DNA from: a virus
Lineage: Duplodnaviria; Caudoviricetes
Direction: 5' to 3' (one strand)
Virus record (IMG/VR): IMGVR_UViG_2597489889_000001
Coordinates: 51-64,050 of that record
Length of the DNA stretch: 64,000 bases
Part shown: one piece after another, positions 13,489-63,518 of the stretch
Numbering within the stretch: the first letter of the stretch is position 1
How the letters are laid out: every line of letters begins with the position of its first letter
Program-made: the position numbers and the translations under genes
The notes under the pieces: model-generated
Told to the model about the DNA's origin: nothing
Database searches by the model: none
The model's input: the letters and a program-made list of their open reading frames with translations, nothing else

Positions 13489-13492
13489 AAAA

Positions 13493-13522
13493 CTTGCACA
13501 CGCGGAATAGCCCTGTTTTCAT
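13493..13522 (+). promoter_or_regulatory. Candidate late promoter pR'
   Basis: TTGCAC-17 bp-TTTCAT right after Q. Confidence 0.45.
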
Positions 13523-13560
13523 GGCACCGTGTTCAGCTTTACAAGCGCGACACCACAGAG

Positions 13561-13590
13561 AAAGCCCAGCCCACGCGCTGGGCTTTTTTT
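13561..13590 (+). terminator. tR'-like intrinsic terminator
   Basis: AAAGCCCAGC-ccacgc-GCTGGGCTTTTTTT. Confidence 0.8.
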
Positions 13591-13771
13591 ATGCCCAGAA
13601 TTTATGCGAGAGCGTGGAGCCATAGCCAGGATGGGCCTTCGGGCGGGCCTGGACGCGGTATCGCCGGTAGTCACGCGTTACGAAAGAACACCGGCAGCTT
13701 GAGCAGCTAATTCTGTGTGCTATTGGGGCTGGCTCAAGCGGACAGGCGTGGAGAGACACGCAAACCTATTT

Positions 13772-33615: not shown

Positions 33616-34149
33616 ATGCCTATCACCGAGCAGCAAATGCTGCAGATACTCCCGAACGCCGGCCGCAATGCCGGCGTTTTTGTTCCTGTGCTGAATGCGG
33701 CGATGAGTCGACACGCCATTGTCACCCCGCCGCGCATCGCGGCGTTCATCGCCCAGGTCGGGCATGAGTCGGGCCAGTTGCGTTACGTGCGGGAGATTTG
33801 GGGACCAACGCAGCAACAGGCCGGGTACGAAGGTCGTGCCGATCTGGGCAACACCGTGAAGGGTGACGGTTCCAGGTACCGTGGTCGTGGCCTGATCCAG
33901 GTCACTGGGCGTGCCAACTATGCCGCGTGCGGCGAGGCCCTGGGGCTGGACCTGATCAACAAGCCTGAATTGCTTGAGTTGCCCCAGCACGCCGCCATGT
34001 CAGCGGCCTGGTTCTGGTCGACCAAAGGCCTAAACACGCTGGCGGATCAGGGGCAGTTCGCGAAGATCACCCGACGTATCAACGGTGGGCTTACCGGCCA
34101 GGACGACCGCCAGGCGCTGTATGAAAAAGCGCTAAAGATCATGGGGTGA
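33616..34149 (+). CDS. Endolysin, glycoside hydrolase family 19
   Basis: FIAQVGHESG, YRGRGLIQVTGRANY, ITRRINGG. Confidence 0.93.
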   Translation: MPITEQQMLQILPNAGRNAGVFVPVLNAAMSRHAIVTPPRIAAFIAQVGHESGQLRYVREIWGPTQQQAGYEGRADLGNTVKGDGSRYRGRGLIQVTGRANYAACGEALGLDLINKPELLELPQHAAMSAAWFWSTKGLNTLADQGQFAKITRRINGGLTGQDDRQALYEKALKIMG

Positions 34150-35789: not shown

Positions 35790-35957
35790 TCAAGCTCTTT
35801 TCGCTTCTGCCTTCATCATCACGAGATTCTGCTGCTTGGTCGCTTCAGTCAGAACCTCACTGTAGACGCGCTTTTTCTGCTCGGATTTTGCGTCACGGAT
35901 AAAGTCGGCAAAGGAGCTTTTTGCACCTTTGGACAAGCCCAGCTTGATCGATATCAT
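35790..35957 (-). CDS. Small protein (55 aa) coupled to the zeta-family gene, absent from the ORF track
   Basis: MISIKLGLSKGAKSSFADFIRDAKSEQKKRVYSEVLTEATKQQNLVMMKAEAKRA; TGATG overlap with the upstream stop. Confidence 0.7.
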   Translation of the reverse strand: MISIKLGLSKGAKSSFADFIRDAKSEQKKRVYSEVLTEATKQQNLVMMKAEAKRA

Positions 35958-36463
35958 CAACGCGCTCCTGATGGTGGCCCGAGCTTAGCCGCTAGATCGG
36001 CCGAAATCCCAAGCAAGCATGGGGTTTTGATACACGTACAAGATCTGTACGATCTGCCCTTTCTCAATGAGCGTTCCACATTGCTTCTAGCTATTTCTAG
36101 ATTCGAAAAGGTGCCATCGAGCAGGAAGGATTGTCGTTGATCCAATGCGAGGTCGACGATTTTTTCGACCAAAATAGATACGCCTTGTTGAAACAGCCAC
36201 GAGTTCGCCCCCTGATACGCGGCAAACTCCTTGCGAAGCTCATCGGGGTCGATCTTTAGGATGGGGGTGTCGGCGAACAGGTTCACGAGAGCGATTGAGG
36301 CCTCGGTTTTTCCTGCTCCGGGTGATCCTGCCATGAAGACGGACACCGGTGACTCTTCTGATGGATAGATAGCTTTGTCTGTCAGCCGTTTGGCAATTGA
36401 TTTTTTATTTGAGCGGGCAAAGCGCAGTGCTTCTTCTGAAATATCAATCTCTGCCGGTGTCAT
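35957..36463 (-). pseudogene. Zeta-toxin-family P-loop kinase, frameshifted and apparently internally deleted
   Basis: MAGSPGAGKT, IDPDELR, LLDGTFS; the expected VQILYVYQNPMLAWDF lies in a shifted frame near 36050. Confidence 0.7.
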
Positions 36464-36599
36464 CCTGCCTGCTTCGGGAAATGCGGTCTCTTCAATCAAA
36501 CATCCCCATCTGTTTCGGTGGTGAGGTAGAGACTATCACGCGAGTCCAGCTCCTTTACTGGCCGAAACGTCACTTAATACATCCGTTTTATGTAGATAT

Positions 36600-36613: not shown

Positions 36614-36649
36614 TTGCCAACCTCAAAAACTCCCGTCACTATCCGCGTT

Positions 36650-37384
36650 ATGCAAAAACGCAATGTTTCTATCGTCTTAAGAGAGCTGCTGGATCGCGAC
36701 CGGATCTCCCCCACGGAGCTTCATCGGCGCACCGGCGTGCCTCAATCCACACTGTCCCGGATCCTCAGCGGCAAGATCGTTGATCCGTCGGATAAACACA
36801 TCTCCCGTATCGCCGAGTATTTTCGCGTGAGCACCGACCAACTGCGCGGGCGCGCTGCGGTTGGAGCCTTGCGCGATGACGGGCGCGACCCGATGCATTC
36901 GGAACTCAAGGACATAAGCCTGTGGGACGATGACACCCCCGTCAATGATGACGAGGTGTCGATCCCTTTTCTGCGCGAGGTTGAATTGGCTGCTGGATCA
37001 GGAAGATTCGTCATCGAGGAAAGCGAGAAGGCCAGCCTGCGGTTCGGCAAGCGCAGTCTGCGGCACAACGGCGTGCAGTTCGACCAGGCCAAGTGCGTGA
37101 CGGTACGCGGCAACAGCATGTTGCCGGTATTGCGCGACGGTGCCACGGTTGGCGTGAACGCCGGTAAAAGCGGCATTGGCGATATCGTCGATGGTGATCT
37201 GTATGCCATCAATCACAACGGCCAGCTGCGAGTTAAACAGCTCTACCGCCTGCCTTCCGGGATTCGCCTGCGCAGTTTCAATCGTGATGAGCATCCGGAT
37301 GAGGACTACAGCTTCCAGGATATACAGGATGAGCAGATCAGCATCCTCGGTCATGTTTTCTGGTGGGGCATGTACGCCCGCTAA
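36650..37384 (+). CDS. prtR: PrtR-like tailocin repressor (HTH + S24 autopeptidase)
   Basis: ISPTELHRRTGVPQSTLSRILSGK; VRGNSMLPV; LRVKQLYR; heads the tailocin cluster. Confidence 0.85.
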   Translation: MQKRNVSIVLRELLDRDRISPTELHRRTGVPQSTLSRILSGKIVDPSDKHISRIAEYFRVSTDQLRGRAAVGALRDDGRDPMHSELKDISLWDDDTPVNDDEVSIPFLREVELAAGSGRFVIEESEKASLRFGKRSLRHNGVQFDQAKCVTVRGNSMLPVLRDGATVGVNAGKSGIGDIVDGDLYAINHNGQLRVKQLYRLPSGIRLRSFNRDEHPDEDYSFQDIQDEQISILGHVFWWGMYAR

Positions 37385-37400: not shown

Positions 37401-37429
37401 GAAACCCGCCTATGAGCGGGTTTTTTTTC
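37401..37429 (+). terminator. Intrinsic terminator after the prtR-like gene
   Basis: AAACCCGC-ctatga-GCGGGTTTTTTTT. Confidence 0.8.
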
Positions 37430-37471: not shown

Positions 37472-37544
37472 ATGCATTCGTGCATTTCCATAGCAAAAAT
37501 AAATGCATTGATGCATTGACTGTATATGCATACATGCATATTCT
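37472..37544 (+). promoter_or_regulatory. Tailocin promoter with three ATGC-N6-GCAT boxes and an SOS-box-like site
   Basis: -35 TTGACT (37516), 17 bp, -10 TATTCT (37539); boxes at 37472, 37503, 37526; CTGTATATGCATACAT (37520-37535) is one mismatch from CTGT-N8-ACAG. Confidence 0.7.
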
Positions 37545-37550
37545 TCACCT

Positions 37551-37905
37551 CAAGCCAGCCAACAAGGCCTGGTGGAGGCGGCAAGGATGCTGCCAAGGAA
37601 GACAAGGAAGGCACGCAACATCGGCAAGGACGCCATCGAAGCGATGGCAGGGATGCCAGGCAACACCGGCAAGGATGCCGACGCTCTTTAGTTTCAACGC
37701 TTCAAAAACAGGCAGCGATGAACCGGCCTTGACGGTTCAGAGGGTTGGCAACTGACCCGGGTGTGCAGCGTAAAGCACCAGAAGCAGTTATCCGGCAGAC
37801 AGGGATCGTGGTCGGAAAAACATCGAGGAAAGGACCGTACCGCGCCAGTAGCGCCGAAAGTCCGAGGACCGCATTACTGAAAAGCCCGGGCAACCGGGCT
37901 TTTTG
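37551..37905 (+). ncRNA. Candidate GGA-rich (Rsm/Csr-type) structured leader RNA ending in a terminator
   Basis: Four GGC-A(A/G)GGA(T/C)-GC(C/T) hairpins, several more GGA motifs, terminator at 37880-37904. Confidence 0.5.
37880..37905 (+). terminator. Intrinsic terminator upstream of the tailocin holin
   Basis: AAAAGCCCGG-GCAA-CCGGGCTTTTT. Confidence 0.85.
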
Positions 37906-37974
37906 GAATGCCTACCTATCGAAGCATCTGTAAATGAAATATGGATTATTAAATGCTCAGCCAGGAGGCGTGAC

Positions 37975-38313
37975 ATGACAAATGAACAGCAAGCGTTAGC
38001 GGAAATGCCTATCTGGCTGGTCATCGTACTGGCCGTGATCGGCGGCGTATCCGGCGAGATGTGGCGGGCCGATAAGGAAGGGGCTCGCGGTTGGTCGCTG
38101 ATTCGACGCCTGGCCCTGCGTTCCGGGGCGTGCATGGTCTGCGGGGTTTCGGCTCTGATGCTGTGCTACGCAGCGGGGATGTCGATCTGGACCGCCGGCG
38201 CCATTGGTTGCCTGACCGCCATGGCCGGTGCCGACGTGGCTATCGGCCTTTATGAGCGGTGGGCGGCCAAGCGCATCGGGATCAACCAAGGCTCCCGCCA
38301 GGACCCGCAGTAA
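37975..38313 (+). CDS. Tailocin holin
   Basis: Three TM segments; IGGVSGEMWRADK...GADVAIGLYERW; RBS AGGAGG. Confidence 0.85.
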   Translation: MTNEQQALAEMPIWLVIVLAVIGGVSGEMWRADKEGARGWSLIRRLALRSGACMVCGVSALMLCYAAGMSIWTAGAIGCLTAMAGADVAIGLYERWAAKRIGINQGSRQDPQ

Positions 38314-38336
38314 TCGTTGCAAGGACGCTACATAAA

Positions 38337-38852
38337 ATGACGCTTATCGAAAAGCCATCCCAACTGCCCCAGGCCGTGGGCGCTGCGCTGCATGCAGCTT
38401 TCCCGGACCTCAAGGTCGGCAGTCATCAGGACTTCCAGGACGACACTGAAAAAACCGGTGTGCAGGTCACAGTCGAAGGCAATGGCCCGGGCATTCGCTC
38501 TCGCGAAGGGCGCAAGGCTCACGTGCTGAGCATTTCACTCAGGGCCATGGTCGCCCCCGGGGCATTGCCGTTCGATGCCTGCGACCTGGCCAGCCAACTC
38601 ATGGATCTTGTGCTGGATAACCGTTGGGACCTGCCCCAGGCACAGTGCGATTTGCCCGCAAATATCGTCGCCGCTCCGGCTGTGCGCAGCACCCTTGATG
38701 CGGACTACGACACCTGGACAGTTTCGTTTACTCAAACCCTCTATCTGGGGCCGCCGTTACTTGAAGATCCTACAGGCCAGCCGCTGTTTGCCTGCACCTG
38801 GGACGTCTCCAACATCGACGATCCAGCCCAATACAAACCACTGGCAGAGTAG
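38337..38852 (+). CDS. Tail completion/terminator-like protein
   Basis: Position between holin and spike; WTVSFTQTLYLG. Confidence 0.65.
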   Translation: MTLIEKPSQLPQAVGAALHAAFPDLKVGSHQDFQDDTEKTGVQVTVEGNGPGIRSREGRKAHVLSISLRAMVAPGALPFDACDLASQLMDLVLDNRWDLPQAQCDLPANIVAAPAVRSTLDADYDTWTVSFTQTLYLGPPLLEDPTGQPLFACTWDVSNIDDPAQYKPLAE

Positions 38853-43019: not shown

Positions 43020-43042
43020 TAACCGCGAAAGCGGTTTTTTTT
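43020..43042 (+). terminator. Intrinsic terminator after the R fibre chaperone
   Basis: AACCGC-GAAA-GCGGTTTTTTTT. Confidence 0.8.
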
Positions 43043-43106
43043 CGCCTCCTCCAAAGCCCCTCCTCAACAGGGGCTTTTGCATTTTCCACCCGGAGATTTT
43101 TCACCC

Positions 43107-45835: not shown

Positions 45836-47374
45836 ATGCAAGAAACTCAATTTGGGACCAGGCTCGTCCAGGAGGACAAGCGTTGGCTGCTTGGCGATGC
45901 GGACCTGGGCAATGTGCTGGCGCCGTTTTCCGCAGACCTCGCCGCGCCTGTCAGCCTTGAATCGGTACCACAGTCGGCGCCGTTATTGTTGCCGCAGCCG
46001 CAGCCGCAACCGCAACCGCAACCGCAACTCCAACCCCAGCCGCAACCACTGCCGGAGCTGACCTCGGCGCTGATCACCGTCAGTGTGGACATCAACGCTC
46101 TGGCCCAAGAGCAAATTCGGTTGCGCGAATCGCTGGAAACGCTCACCAGCACGCTGTTCATTAGCGCCAATTCCCTGGCAACCAAGACGGCAGAGGTCCG
46201 CGCGGGAGTCGCAGAAAGCAAGCAGGACAAGCCTGCGTCTGCTACCCCGTCCTGGGGGGAAAAAAGTGTTGAACTGGCCACGGATGCCGTCAAGTTCGTC
46301 GGCAAGGAAGTGTTCACCGGTTTGTGGGATAAAGCCAAAGACCGTCTTTCAGGCAAGGCGATTGATGCGGTGGCTGCCAGGTATCCGAAGGGTGCCAAGT
46401 GGCTCAAGGACGATAACGGCAAGGGCGCTGAAAAAGGCAAGGACTGTTGCTGCACGGGAGCACTGCCTGCGCAGATTCGCGGCCCGCTTGATAGCGCTGC
46501 CGCACAGTTGCCAGAGAGTGTCGGTGAGACCGCCAGGAAAGAAGAGAAGGCACGCCCCAAAGATAATCCCAGGAGGCCGCGCGGCAAGCGTAACAAGGCC
46601 CGTCAAATAAAATCGCGCGAGGTCAAAATCCCAGAGGTCAGAAGGCGGACGGATCTCAAATCGCAGCCTACTGTCACGCCAGCCCCTGCTGCGCCGCCAG
46701 TCAATATCATGGGCCAGCCGCAGCTAGCGTTCGACAGCAAACGGGTGAGCGAGACTACACGCAGTATTTCCGGCAACTCATTGACCTCTTACGCAGCCGC
46801 TTCGGCAGACCGAGTCGCAGCACAGGGTGGGCCCAAGGGTTTGGCCCCTGGACTGTCGGGGACGCTCGCAAAGCTTGAATCGTCCGCCGTACGTCGCCTT
46901 GGCCCGCTGAAGTATGTCGACACCGCCGTGGATGTGATCCAGGGCGTACGCAATGGCGACGCCAAGGCCGTTGGTGCTGGCCTTAGCACTGCTGGCGGCG
47001 CCTGGGCGGGAGCATCCGCCGGCGCCGCGCTCGGCACGCTGGTTTTCCCTGGCATTGGCACCGCAGTCGGTGGCGCCATCGGTGGCTTGCTCGGCAGCGA
47101 AGCCGGCAGCTGGCTTGGGGACAAGTTGTTCGGTTCAGGCGATCGTCTACCTGCGCCGAACGCGCTGAGTAAAGAGCTCAACAGCGCGCGAACGGACAAC
47201 GTCCAGGTCACGCTCTCACCGAGCATCCAGATCACCGGCGTTAATCCGGCGGACGCCCAGCAAGTGGTCAATCAGGTGATCCAGGCCCTGCAATTTCAAT
47301 GCGTGCCGATGGTCACCGATTCCCTGGGCATCCGGCGCAACGCGGCACTGGCCGATCCTTCAGGAGGTGATTGA
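45836..47374 (+). CDS. R-type tape measure protein
   Basis: Follows chaperones, precedes gpU; Gly/Ala-rich GAALGTLVFPGIGTAVGGAIGG segment. Confidence 0.75.
   Translation: MQETQFGTRLVQEDKRWLLGDADLGNVLAPFSADLAAPVSLESVPQSAPLLLPQPQPQPQPQPQLQPQPQPLPELTSALITVSVDINALAQEQIRLRESLETLTSTLFISANSLATKTAEVRAGVAESKQDKPASATPSWGEKSVELATDAVKFVGKEVFTGLWDKAKDRLSGKAIDAVAARYPKGAKWLKDDNGKGAEKGKDCCCTGALPAQIRGPLDSAAAQLPESVGETARKEEKARPKDNPRRPRGKRNKARQIKSREVKIPEVRRRTDLKSQPTVTPAPAAPPVNIMGQPQLAFDSKRVSETTRSISGNSLTSYAAASADRVAAQGGPKGLAPGLSGTLAKLESSAVRRLGPLKYVDTAVDVIQGVRNGDAKAVGAGLSTAGGAWAGASAGAALGTLVFPGIGTAVGGAIGGLLGSEAGSWLGDKLFGSGDRLPAPNALSKELNSARTDNVQVTLSPSIQITGVNPADAQQVVNQVIQALQFQCVPMVTDSLGIRRNAALADPSGGD
45992..46048 (+). 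repeat. (CCGCAR)n hexamer tandem repeat encoding a PQ tract
   Basis: Six CCGCAG/CCGCAA units followed by degenerate copies. Confidence 0.9.
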
Positions 47375-50185: not shown

Positions 50186-50469
50186 CGGCCGCCGATGAGT
50201 TCTGGCACGAACTGGTGCTGAACGGAGTGGGCGGCCGCACGATCGCCGAAGCCAAGGAACGCATGACCTACCACGAAGCCCTGGCCTGGGGACGCTATAT
50301 CGACCGATATGGCTCCCTGCACGCCGGTAGGCGGCTGGAGGCGGGCAGCGCGTTGGTGGCGCTGCAGACCCACCGGCTGGGCGGCGGCACGGCCGAGATG
50401 ATTGACTTCATGCCCCACGAGCTGCGCCGGGGTGTGTCGCTTGAACGTGCGATGAACGAGTGGCGTTAA
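50176..50469 (+). CDS. F-type chaperone extension, probably reached by -1 frameshift near GCA AAG (50174-50179)
   Basis: -1 frame KELTAADEFWHELVLNGVGGRTIAEAKERM; heptamer is non-canonical. Confidence 0.6.
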   Translation, partial: KELTAADEFWHELVLNGVGGRTIAEAKERMTYHEALAWGRYIDRYGSLHAGRRLEAGSALVALQTHRLGGGTAEMIDFMPHELRRGVSLERAMNEWR

Positions 50470-50531
50470 GGACGACGCCACTTTCCTTGAAACCCGTTTC
50501 GACGGGTTTTATCCATGACCCGGAGAAACCT

Positions 50532-51783: not shown

Positions 51784-52122
51784 ATGAGCACAGAAACTTT
51801 CACATGGGTGCCCAAGGTGGAGCCCGTCGGCAGCGTCGAGTTTCGTCTTAAGACGGCCAAATTCGGCGATGGCTACCAGCAAACGGCAGCGGACGGGATC
51901 AACAACAAGACCCAGTCCTGGCCACTGACGTTCGTGGGTGACGAAGCGCGCATCAAAGCGATCGTTGCTTTCCTTGATCGCCATGCCGGCGCCAAGGCGT
52001 TCAACTGGACCGCACCACTGGCAGCGCCTGCGTTGTATCGCTGCAAGGGTTACCAGCCAACGCCCATGGGCGCCGGGCTCTACTCCCTGACGGCAACGTT
52101 CGAGCAAGCCTTCCACCCCTAG
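51784..52122 (+). CDS. Minor tail protein M-like
   Basis: AKFGDGYQQTAADGIN...FLDRHAGAKAFNWT. Confidence 0.9.
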   Translation: MSTETFTWVPKVEPVGSVEFRLKTAKFGDGYQQTAADGINNKTQSWPLTFVGDEARIKAIVAFLDRHAGAKAFNWTAPLAAPALYRCKGYQPTPMGAGLYSLTATFEQAFHP

Positions 52123-52173
52123 CGCCGCCTCCACCCCGCCGTAGTGCGGGGTTTTCTTTGCCCGGAGAATCAT

Positions 52174-61271: not shown

Positions 61272-61341
61272 ATAGTTGACTGGCGTTTCCGGTGCCCGCC
61301 TTTGTGCGGGCTTTTTATTGAAATGACTATGGAGAGTCCAC

Positions 61342-62970: not shown

Positions 62971-63518
62971 CGCTCACGCAACTTCAGCAAGTCTTCCCAC
63001 GCGCCCGCTCTCTAGCGGGCGTTTTCATATCCTCACTCAACTTGGCAATGCTGAATCGGCAAATCAGCACTCCCCAACGCGCCGCAGCCTTCCTCGCTCA
63101 AATCGGTCACGAGTCCGGTGAACTGCACTACGTGCGCGAGCTGGGCAGTGATCAATACCTGAGCAAATACGACACCGGCGTCTTGGCGGCGCGCCTGGGT
63201 AACACTCCCGAAGCGGACGCAGATGGACAAAAGTATCGTGGCAGAGGGTTGATCCAGATAACCGGCCGCCGTAATTACCTTGCGTGCAGCCAAGCGCTGT
63301 TCGGTGACGATCGCCTGCTGCGACAACCGCAGTTGCTTGAGCAGCCGCAATGGGCCTGCGAATCCGCCGCCTGGTTCTGGCAAAGCAACGGCCTCAACGA
63401 GCTCGCCGACAAAGACCAGTTCACCACCATCACCCGGCGTATCAACGGCGGCCTCAACGGTCTGGACGACCGTTTGCAGTTGTGGGCCCGGGCGAAGGCG
63501 GTGCTATGCGTTTCCTAG
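62967..63518 (+). CDS. Tailocin endolysin, GH19
   Basis: FLAQIGHESG, YRGRGLIQITGRRNY, ITRRINGG. Confidence 0.93.
   Translation: MTLTQLQQVFPRARSLAGVFISSLNLAMLNRQISTPQRAAAFLAQIGHESGELHYVRELGSDQYLSKYDTGVLAARLGNTPEADADGQKYRGRGLIQITGRRNYLACSQALFGDDRLLRQPQLLEQPQWACESAAWFWQSNGLNELADKDQFTTITRRINGGLNGLDDRLQLWARAKAVLCVS

Follow-up and report, generated by a model that had tools for sequence, protein, structure and literature searches.

Candidate Rsm-binding array inserted next to boxA in a putative nut-like leader RNA of a Pseudomonas tailocin operon

Results

The window, i.e. the whole 64,000-nt stretch of DNA that was analysed, corresponds to G000:C1:1347235-1411234 of a 6.3-Mb Pseudomonas genome, and ~26 kb of a tailocin (phage-tail bacteriocin) cluster of the mutS-recA type known from fluorescent pseudomonads are visible within it. 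The genome contains three CsrA-family genes and also encodes RsmZ and RsmY, with the true RsmZ being located ~40 kb upstream, just beyond the window edge. Around the beginning of the tailocin operon, the following genes and signals are found:

33616-34149: GH19 lysozyme gene
35957-36499, minus strand: zeta-toxin gene
36614-37384, plus strand: PrtR/cI-like repressor gene, HTH and S24 peptidase (Pfam PF00717, 9e-19; HTH_3/HTH_26)
37402-37428, plus strand: repressor-gene terminator, an AACCCGC/GCGGGTT hairpin with T8 behind it, kept in the leader alignment
37975-38313, plus strand: holin gene, gene 1 of the operon (Pfam PF16085, 2e-52)
38337-38852, plus strand: gene 2 of the operon (phrog_1072), after which the baseplate genes come next

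The repressor gene is 82-99% identical in relatives, in which the gene order is unchanged. None of the neighbouring genes examined was recognised as N-, Q-, PrtN- or AlpA-like, and for N and Q this covers the genes from prtR to the baseplate genes. A gap of 590 nt separates the repressor gene from the holin gene and accommodates a leader of ~350 nt, with a predicted transcript start near 37551 and an intrinsic terminator that closes it ahead of the holin. The features of this leader and its surroundings are:

37472-85, 37503-16 and 37526-39: three 14-bp putative operators, ATGCAT-NN-(A/G)TGCAT, kept across tailocin leaders
37516-37544, plus strand: sigma-70 promoter TTGACT-17-TATTCT, 9/12 matches, overlapping operators 2 and 3
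37555-37572, plus strand: 5' hairpin at the transcript start, 96.9% of cells paired in 49 sequences
37577-37680, plus strand: candidate RsmA/E array with six CANGGANG, from motif counts, alignment and pairing analysis
37577-94, plus strand: hairpin H1 of the array
37594 and 37603, plus strand: two unpaired array motifs, both CAAGGAAG
37623-57, plus strand: compound hairpin of the array, two motifs exposed around the covarying stem 37632-48
37667-80, plus strand: hairpin H4 of the array, ending two bases 5' of boxA
37682-37690, plus strand: boxA-like CGCTCTTTA, two bases 3' of H4, the same 9-mer as in the rrn boxA
37711-37817, plus strand: conserved core RNA with three helical domains, near-invariant across clades, four compensatory pairs
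37842-37854, plus strand: small hairpin GCGC-CAGTA-GCGC, kept in most tailocin-type and some prophage-type leaders, with varying flanks
37880-37904, plus strand: intrinsic terminator of the leader, stem GCCCGG/CCGGGC at 37884-37899, U5 at 37900-37904
38318-38327, plus strand: ribosome site of gene 2, GCAAGGACGC, ten bases 5' of the ATG at 38337, with the motif CAAGGACG at 38320-38327

A first-pass annotation had already pointed out the promoter, a strong terminator before the holin, GGA hairpins and a further motif copy at the ribosome site of gene 2, and all of these were recovered. Its assumption that a repressor controls the promoter is supported by the repressor-type operators and the adjoining PrtR-like gene, and a repressor may bind the ATGCAT-type repeats. 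The statement that the ~350-nt leader is packed with GGA hairpins holds for the first ~130 nt, in which the two CAAGGAAG can be added to the hairpin motifs at 37582, 37625, 37648 and 37670, but not for the remainder, which is a separate module of boxA and structured RNA. The downstream strings ACAGGGAT (37799), GAGGAAAGGA (37825) and GAGGAC (37865) are indeed present, but their GGA is not kept in relatives, and they lie outside the array and were rejected as members of it.

Between 37300 and 38400, TTGACT-17-TATTCT was the sole promoter-like site found by a consensus scanner, and it is near-invariant in 50 species. The same scanner called neither of the two evident terminators, that of the repressor gene and that of the leader, and a separate fold-based scan was therefore used; the leader terminator was probably overlooked because pairing of the A-tract with the U-tract consumes the T run. 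The terminator hairpin (dG -15.4 kcal/mol; ~94% column identity in 50 species) sits 200 nt past the array, beyond boxA and core, and the spacer that follows it diverges between species, unlike the array. Prophage-type leaders with other repressors have different repeats at the operator position, and the 5' hairpin has another stem sequence in clades without the array, with its pairing retained (AGCCGCT/AGCGGCT). On the coding strand within the cluster, terminator-like hairpins recur near 43075, 50491-50513, 52152, 61312 and 63022, for which reason processive antitermination would be useful.

The six array motifs (37582, 37594, 37603, 37625, 37648, 37670) are spaced by 9-23 nt, and four of them lie in loops, on stems that are still paired in 49 sequences. 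When all 140-nt segments of the entire 6.3-Mb genome were compared for their motif counts, both strands included, the segment with the array ranked first for CANGGA (6 copies) and for CANGGANG (6 copies versus 4 in the runner-up), it was level with the true RsmZ for ANGGA (6 each), and it held 4 of the genome's 121 sites of the type GCA[AG]GGA[TC]GC. The clustering is far above chance. A loose count of hairpins with a 3-bp stem plus GGA was dropped because the true RsmZ and RsmY did not come out near the top. Tandem Repeats Finder detected a repeat of period 22 with 3.6 copies in the array, which suggests that the array originated by local duplication. Two further candidates for a second array were rejected: the CANGGANG trio at 46279-46405 lies within a coding frame, and the weak rsmX match at 50369-50512 of the window corresponds to a gene boundary with a hairpin and a terminator. 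The genome does contain a second copy of the leader (G000 2434258-2434640), which is shorter and has three motifs and the same operators; it is not an orphan sRNA, as it heads a com-like/Mu-like (lytic) operon.

As for selection on the array, the first-pass annotation had proposed the conservation of the GGA loops as a check, and the motif letters are almost fixed across 50 species while the free N positions vary. In 300 cells each (50 species x 6 motifs), the non-consensus counts along C-A-N-G-G-A-N-G are 1, 4, 50, 4, 7, 0, 42 and 8, and the third array hairpin alone occurs with CAGGGAT, CAAGGAC, CAAGGAT, CAGGGAA, CACGGAT or CAGGGAG. Polymorphic are 11 of the 12 columns at N positions, 6 of the 36 at fixed motif positions (1 of 30 if motif 2 is excluded), and 32 of the 57 other array columns. 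The corresponding Fisher p values, 5.6e-6 for N versus fixed positions and 1.9e-4 for fixed positions versus other array columns, are overstated because the species are related, but the pattern is plain nevertheless. The RsmE/CsrA consensus known from SELEX and RsmE-RNA structures is A/U-CANGGANG-U/A, presented in hexaloops, and the free and fixed positions of the array agree with it. By this comparison of sequences, the substitution pattern is the one expected of selected RsmA/E sites.

The array stems are paired in 95.9% of cells. H1 retains 100% pairing through GU/GC/AU exchanges, and in five sequences UA is replaced by CG in the middle stem (37632-48). Double changes are limited to 2 pairs; with sequences that are 82-100% alike, the covariation is thin. 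Single-base indels are located in the hairpin loops. A 34-codon frame (37587-37691) runs through the array, with GGAGG 9 nt before its ATG at 37587, and is open in ~36/50 species; its start codon is lost in 3/50, it is broken or shifted in 11/20 of the most divergent species, and it was rejected as coding as it is broken in many divergent species.

The array is directly followed by boxA. Six rrn leaders of the genome carry CCGCTCTTTAACAA, and the 9-mer CGCTCTTTA therein is identical to the leader boxA. The 10-mer GCTCTTTAGT (37683-37692) is unchanged in 48/51 array leaders, and boxA is present also in most non-array and prophage-type leaders; the leaders L016-L018 and L024 are without it. With 89 genomic copies of the 8-mer GCTCTTTA, the boxA assignment rests on conservation and position and not on rarity. 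The core that follows shows compensatory changes at four pairs (CG/AU/UA, UA/CG, GC/AU, GC/AU). In a search of Rfam 15, the core (37711-37817) gave nothing at gathering threshold, and the sole match with E up to 10, mir-1202 at chance level, touches just its first two bases. An Arg-rich frame in the core (MNRPQRF...) was rejected as coding, having a stop at codon 5 here and stops in several relatives; since this frame is stopped and all codon positions are equally invariant, the constraint on the core acts at the RNA level.

Prophage-type leaders whose operators and repressors are of another kind also contain the core, as do cultured temperate phages. PseuP_224 was the one lambdoid phage examined; here the core follows cI directly and in the same orientation, which corresponds to the lambda PL/nutL position. 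All aligned tailocin loci, and most prophage-type loci that were examined upstream, have the order repressor gene, terminator, operators with promoter, and leader, and the first genes downstream of the core vary from locus to locus. This variability and the lack of a recognisable N- or Q-like gene make a host-factor or RNA-only mechanism more likely.

The relation of array and core became evident from an alignment of the prtR-holin spacers of 13 species. Promoter and operators, the 5' hairpin, CGCTCTTTAG, the ~110-nt near-invariant stretch, the GCGC hairpin and the terminator are common to most aligned tailocin leaders, and the ~105-nt stretch of GGA motifs is restricted to the window and the relatives closest to it. 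The remaining leaders have CGCTCTTTAG almost directly 3' of the 5' hairpin with no array in between; leader L014 has a partial version of the array stretch that is without GGA. In a genus survey with one genome per species (401 Pseudomonas genomes; the core tally includes one unpublished genome, G123, which has no bearing on the conclusions), the full-length array was present in 59 genomes at 82-100% identity and the core in 215. Since the flanks align in other clades that have no array, and given the 59/401 against 215/401 genomes, the sequence comparison identifies the array as a ~105-nt insertion into a more widespread module, confined to the P. fluorescens/gessardii subgroups. The exact 25-nt H4-boxA junction, i.e. 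the last hairpin plus CGCTCTTTAG, occurs in 66 of 185,579 species genomes, all of them Pseudomonas of the fluorescens/gessardii subgroups, including libanensis, veronii, rhodesiae, lactis, cedrina, poae, orientalis, antarctica, simiae, gessardii, brenneri and proteolytica. No phage of the phage collection carries the array, and 24 further genera of the order, searched at the DNA level, gave no match.

Is the array then a member of the RsmX/Y/Z sRNAs? The Rfam check that the first-pass annotation had suggested speaks against this. At the gathering thresholds there was no match in the leader to any Rfam model, the three families (RF00166, RF00195, RF02144; clan CL00106) included, and the permissive mode gave only a sub-threshold RsmZ-like match; with the PrrB_RsmZ covariance model the leader reaches 22.2 bits at a cut-off of 44, level with background matches elsewhere in the genome (23.3, 19.8 and 19.6 bits); the values are 122 bits for the true RsmZ and 126 bits for the true RsmY. 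Allowing up to 3 mismatches, we detected no GacA box (TGTAAG-N6-CTTACA) in the 300 nt that precede the promoter. With this score below the cut-off and no GacA box, membership was rejected. DNA searches of this genome with leader or array returned only the two leader copies, with rsmZ and rsmY not being matched. The array resembles the RsmX/Y/Z sRNAs in having several ANGGA/CANGGANG motifs in short hairpin loops and linkers with 9-23-nt spacing, and its ANGGA count equals that of RsmZ. It differs from them in that its promoter sits in repressor-type operators instead of being preceded by a GacA box, in that it belongs to an operon leader and is thus probably no stand-alone gene, and in that it contains six full CANGGANG matches, of which RsmZ and RsmY have 0.

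That the leader is transcribed was seen in RNA data in the form of assembled Logan contigs, which can show neither the position of a drop nor a discrete RNA. In run X2, a 231-nt contig with a depth of 6016 covers 37561-37761, with an Illumina adapter joined at 37561, and a contig of 7.3 kb with a depth of 856 begins at 37732, crosses the terminator and continues into the operon; the prtR contig has a depth of 233. The 5' part of the leader is thus ~7-fold deeper than the next 7.3 kb, which, as a ratio of contig averages, is a weak hint. The contig break inside the core is explained by the paralogous prophage-type leaders of that strain. In a different study, one contig of 18.9 kb spans leader, terminator and operon, and the leader terminator is crossed by RNA contigs in two runs altogether. 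In run X12, 37867-37932 is not covered by contigs, a gap that is not usable as a transcript end. Taken together, the contigs indicate that the leader is transcribed, that read-through exists, and that the 5' part is on average more abundant than the operon.

The motif at the gene-2 ribosome site is conserved alongside the array. GCAAGGA[N]GC is invariant there in 48/48 array-bearing species, these being the ones with a detectable gene-2 orthologue, and its flanks vary; the gene-2 orthologues of three non-array species have AAAAGGAGG in place of the CANGGANG-type motif. Within the cluster, it is the sole ribosome site with CANGGANG.

A link to the Gac/Rsm system is suggested by published microarrays of P. 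fluorescens SS101, in which tail genes lie near rsmZ as they do in this genome. According to the supplement of that study, PflSS101_1186, 1187, 1189 and 1190, among which are the tail sheath and tube genes, are 2.3-4.1-fold down in gacS and gacA mutants (PMC4353343). In that supplement each of the tags occurs three times, and none occurs in its table of gacA-versus-rsmYZ differences, from which it can be concluded by elimination that these genes are probably also listed for rsmYZ (PMC4353343). The Gac dependence comes from another strain, which may or may not carry the array, and other explanations such as Gac effects on SOS induction are possible. The compensation of gacS through PFLU4242 (Hall et al. 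2021) has no bearing on the leader.

Discussion

Our best reading of the leader outside the array is that it represents a nut-like antitermination module, and for the entire leader we propose a composite cis-regulatory RNA, in which this older nut-like backbone would be gated in cis by the inserted array of Rsm sites. We give this reading a probability of roughly 0.45. Rsm binding, the use of Nus factors, antitermination and the direction of control are what we infer from sequence features. The backbone would comprise the 5' hairpin, boxA, the structured ~110-nt RNA and the terminator, all placed downstream of a repressor-controlled promoter. Upon inactivation of PrtR by DNA damage, the polymerase would transcribe the leader RNA and become modified, and the modified polymerase would then be able to pass the leader terminator as well as the terminator-like hairpins within the cluster. 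In the P. fluorescens/gessardii subgroups, the ~105-nt six-site array would have been inserted between the 5' hairpin and boxA, and free Rsm proteins could load on the nascent array and thereby hinder the loading of NusB/S10 or the folding of the core. Such a hindrance is suggested by the gap of just two bases between the last site and boxA, the site of NusB/S10. With Rsm proteins on the array, the antitermination complex would not be assembled and transcription would stop at the leader terminator. With Gac being on, RsmY/Z would titrate the Rsm proteins, the terminator would be read through, and the tailocin would be made, with the Rsm motif at the gene-2 ribosome site possibly serving as an added translational check. 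The array probably ties the self-destructive tailocin release to the Gac/Rsm status, and both the insertion site and the SS101 data fit this cis-gated reading. As to the direction, RNAalifold pairs one GGA motif with boxA, and the opposite is therefore possible as well, i.e. Rsm binding could free boxA.

How does such a module compare with known systems? As in the case of lambda nutL/nutR and the rrn leaders, the leader lies directly downstream of a repressor-controlled promoter that follows a repressor gene, its boxA is identical to the host rrn boxA, and there are terminators downstream. It differs from lambda nut in having neither a boxB-like 15-nt hairpin nor, among the genes examined, an N gene and instead a ~110-nt three-domain RNA, and from both in that boxA is absent from the leaders of some relatives. 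The HK022 put RNA is likewise a structured RNA just after an early promoter and has no conserved phage protein partner nearby; the likeness is one of position and logic only, and the leader core is larger and its boxA suggests the use of Nus factors. In P. aeruginosa, AlpA and PrtN reportedly control a DNA-damage-induced lysis/bacteriocin operon in which an early terminator must be bypassed, AlpA being, as is said, a DNA-binding protein antiterminator. The tailocin operon is similar in its terminator early in the transcript, but no alpA- or prtN-like gene was identified in the flanking genes examined here. With respect to the array, the E. coli pgaA leader can be compared, in which CsrA binding promotes Rho-dependent termination. 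In both leaders, the bound Csr/Rsm protein is proposed to set whether transcription goes on, but in our case the proposed target is an intrinsic terminator plus a boxA-type complex, and there are six sites. It is possible, although doubtful, that Rsm/Csr proteins gate boxA (Nus-factor) antitermination as such, so that the DNA-damage signal of PrtR and the population-state signal of Gac/Rsm merge at one RNA and jointly license the suicidal release of tailocins, and that the core is a new and widespread put/nut-like RNA.

What alternatives have to be considered? The leader could act as a sponge in trans, in that after inactivation of PrtR an abundant terminated or processed leader would titrate RsmA/E under SOS control and independently of Gac, whereby Rsm targets including gene 2 of the operon may be de-repressed in cells that are committed to lysis. 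We regard this as rather unlikely, though as a serious rival. Six near-optimal motifs with an RsmZ-like spacing and a closing terminator would suit this function, but the array forms the 5' end of a leader that belongs to an operon and is thus probably no separate gene, its last site abuts boxA in an invariant junction, and the second genomic copy heads a lytic operon, too, instead of being a stand-alone sRNA. The greater depth of the 5' part in run X2 would agree with an abundant short leader, but it fits gating in cis equally well, and a discrete RNA species cannot be read from contig depths. A target within the same operon is indicated by the gene-2 motif, which accompanies the array in all 48 species and is absent from the three non-array orthologues, but the benefit of a sponge that is produced only in cells near lysis is not obvious. 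Moreover, a pure sponge does not predict the Gac/RsmYZ dependence of the SS101 tail-gene mRNA. It is this dependence in a related strain, together with the boxA-adjacent position, that makes us lean to the cis switch.

It is improbable that the array instead determines the fate of the mRNA, with Rsm dimers bridging the leader to the ribosome sites of gene 2 or the holin, or with bound Rsm proteins altering the access of RNases to the 5' end, whereby the translation and stability of the operon mRNA would be tuned. This would give a role to the stabiliser-type 5' hairpin ahead of the array and to the gene-2 motif that is conserved together with the array, and the holin ribosome site contains CAGGAGG. 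However, a bridge would have to span the terminator and a distance of ~420 nt to the ribosome site of the holin or ~740 nt to that of gene 2, the gene-2 site is the only one in the cluster with such a motif, and the insertion next to boxA is left without explanation. That the array is unrelated to Rsm proteins, being a relic of tandem duplication as the 22-nt period might suggest, a 30S decoy due to its Shine-Dalgarno-like AAGGA, or the 34-codon leader peptide, is very improbable, as the selection tracks CA-GGA-G with a free N and neither codon positions nor the Shine-Dalgarno core alone, and as 82-100% identity in 59 species would be unexpected for a neutral relic while the post-terminator spacer diverges.

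Conclusions

Cis-gated antitermination would combine two known kinds of elements, and it is the combination of Csr/Rsm sites with a nut-type leader that would be new here. The first-pass annotation, which knew of no such description in tailocins, had missed that the array is a clade-specific insertion and that the rest of the leader is a widespread module of nut type; in our literature search, the coverage of which is incomplete, we likewise found neither an Rsm array nor a boxA/core module described for tailocin leaders. As the release of tailocins kills the producer, the decision to release them is a key point in the ecology of plant-associated pseudomonads, and it matters also for tailocins as biocontrol agents. 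If the proposed mechanism is true, the array is a direct molecular link from the Gac/Rsm switch of social behaviour and secondary metabolism to SOS-induced lysis, and Csr/Rsm control would extend from translation to processive antitermination. The boxA-plus-core module, present in roughly half of the Pseudomonas species sampled as well as in cultured temperate phages, is a candidate for a new family of antitermination RNAs, and it would explain how terminators are passed in tailocin clusters that have no activators of the PrtN, AlpA or Q type.

Genes and further features around the tailocin leader

In several species whose leader lacks the array of GGA-type candidate RsmA/E motifs (loci L006, L011, L012, L013 and L015), the leader terminator is followed by one or two extra genes ahead of the holin gene; their products of about 100-200 aa, which end in a C-terminal ...QPGYP..I.WP..P, look like tail-fibre assembly proteins. 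At least some of the genomes with this insert have two copies of the leader terminator sequence, one on each side of the extra genes. In the window itself, a zeta-toxin family gene sits between prtR and the upstream lysozyme gene, and some of the terminator-like hairpins listed below for the tailocin cluster are found at gene-module boundaries.

Further features of the window
35957-36499, minus strand: zeta-toxin family gene (PF06414, 1e-22)
43040-43080, plus (coding) strand: terminator-like hairpin with T run, in the tailocin cluster
50491-50513, plus (coding) strand: the same
52120-52156, plus (coding) strand: the same
61290-61316, plus (coding) strand: the same
63000-63026, plus (coding) strand: the same

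Related leaders and promoter control

In the leader of one non-array species (locus L014, genome G008), the 5' hairpin is separated from boxA by a short insert of intermediate type, which contains a GGC-AGCAAT-GCC hairpin and has no GGA; this insert could represent either a forerunner of the array or a degraded version of it. At G000:C1:1492805 (minus strand) in G000, the Pseudomonas genome that contains the window, lies a further start of a prophage-type leader (GCCAGGGCCTCAAAGCCCGCC-GCTCTTTAACAGC) with an rrn-like boxA, and neither DNA search of G000 for the conserved core gave a match there. The boxA of Pseudomonas prophages may be paired with more than one kind of downstream RNA.

A Proteo-phage-1 RNA (Rfam RF03044, 69 bits) at window 13620-13699 is preceded by an element of about 90 nt (CCTGTTTTCATGGCACCGTGTT...CACAGAGAAAGCCC plus terminator; region 13490-13700), in which TGGCAC-N5-T.AGC resembles a sigma-54 promoter. 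A similar element, with no clear terminator, lies at G000:C1:2434780-2434870, 3' of a second leader copy.

The tailocin promoter spacer CTGTATATGCATACATG (window 37520-37537) is similar to an SOS (LexA) box (CTG-N10-CAG, one mismatch) and overlaps the third ATGCAT operator, so that LexA as well as PrtR-type control may act on this promoter.

The second leader copy (G000:C1:2434258-2434640; locus L022, 1501-1881) carries the same ATGCAT operators as the tailocin leader, three GGA motifs, boxA and core, but its end hairpin is weaker. A gene for a Mu Com-like zinc-finger protein and an ORF of 283 aa follow at a distance of about 500 nt, and the tailocin repressor may therefore also control a second lytic operon, headed by this copy.
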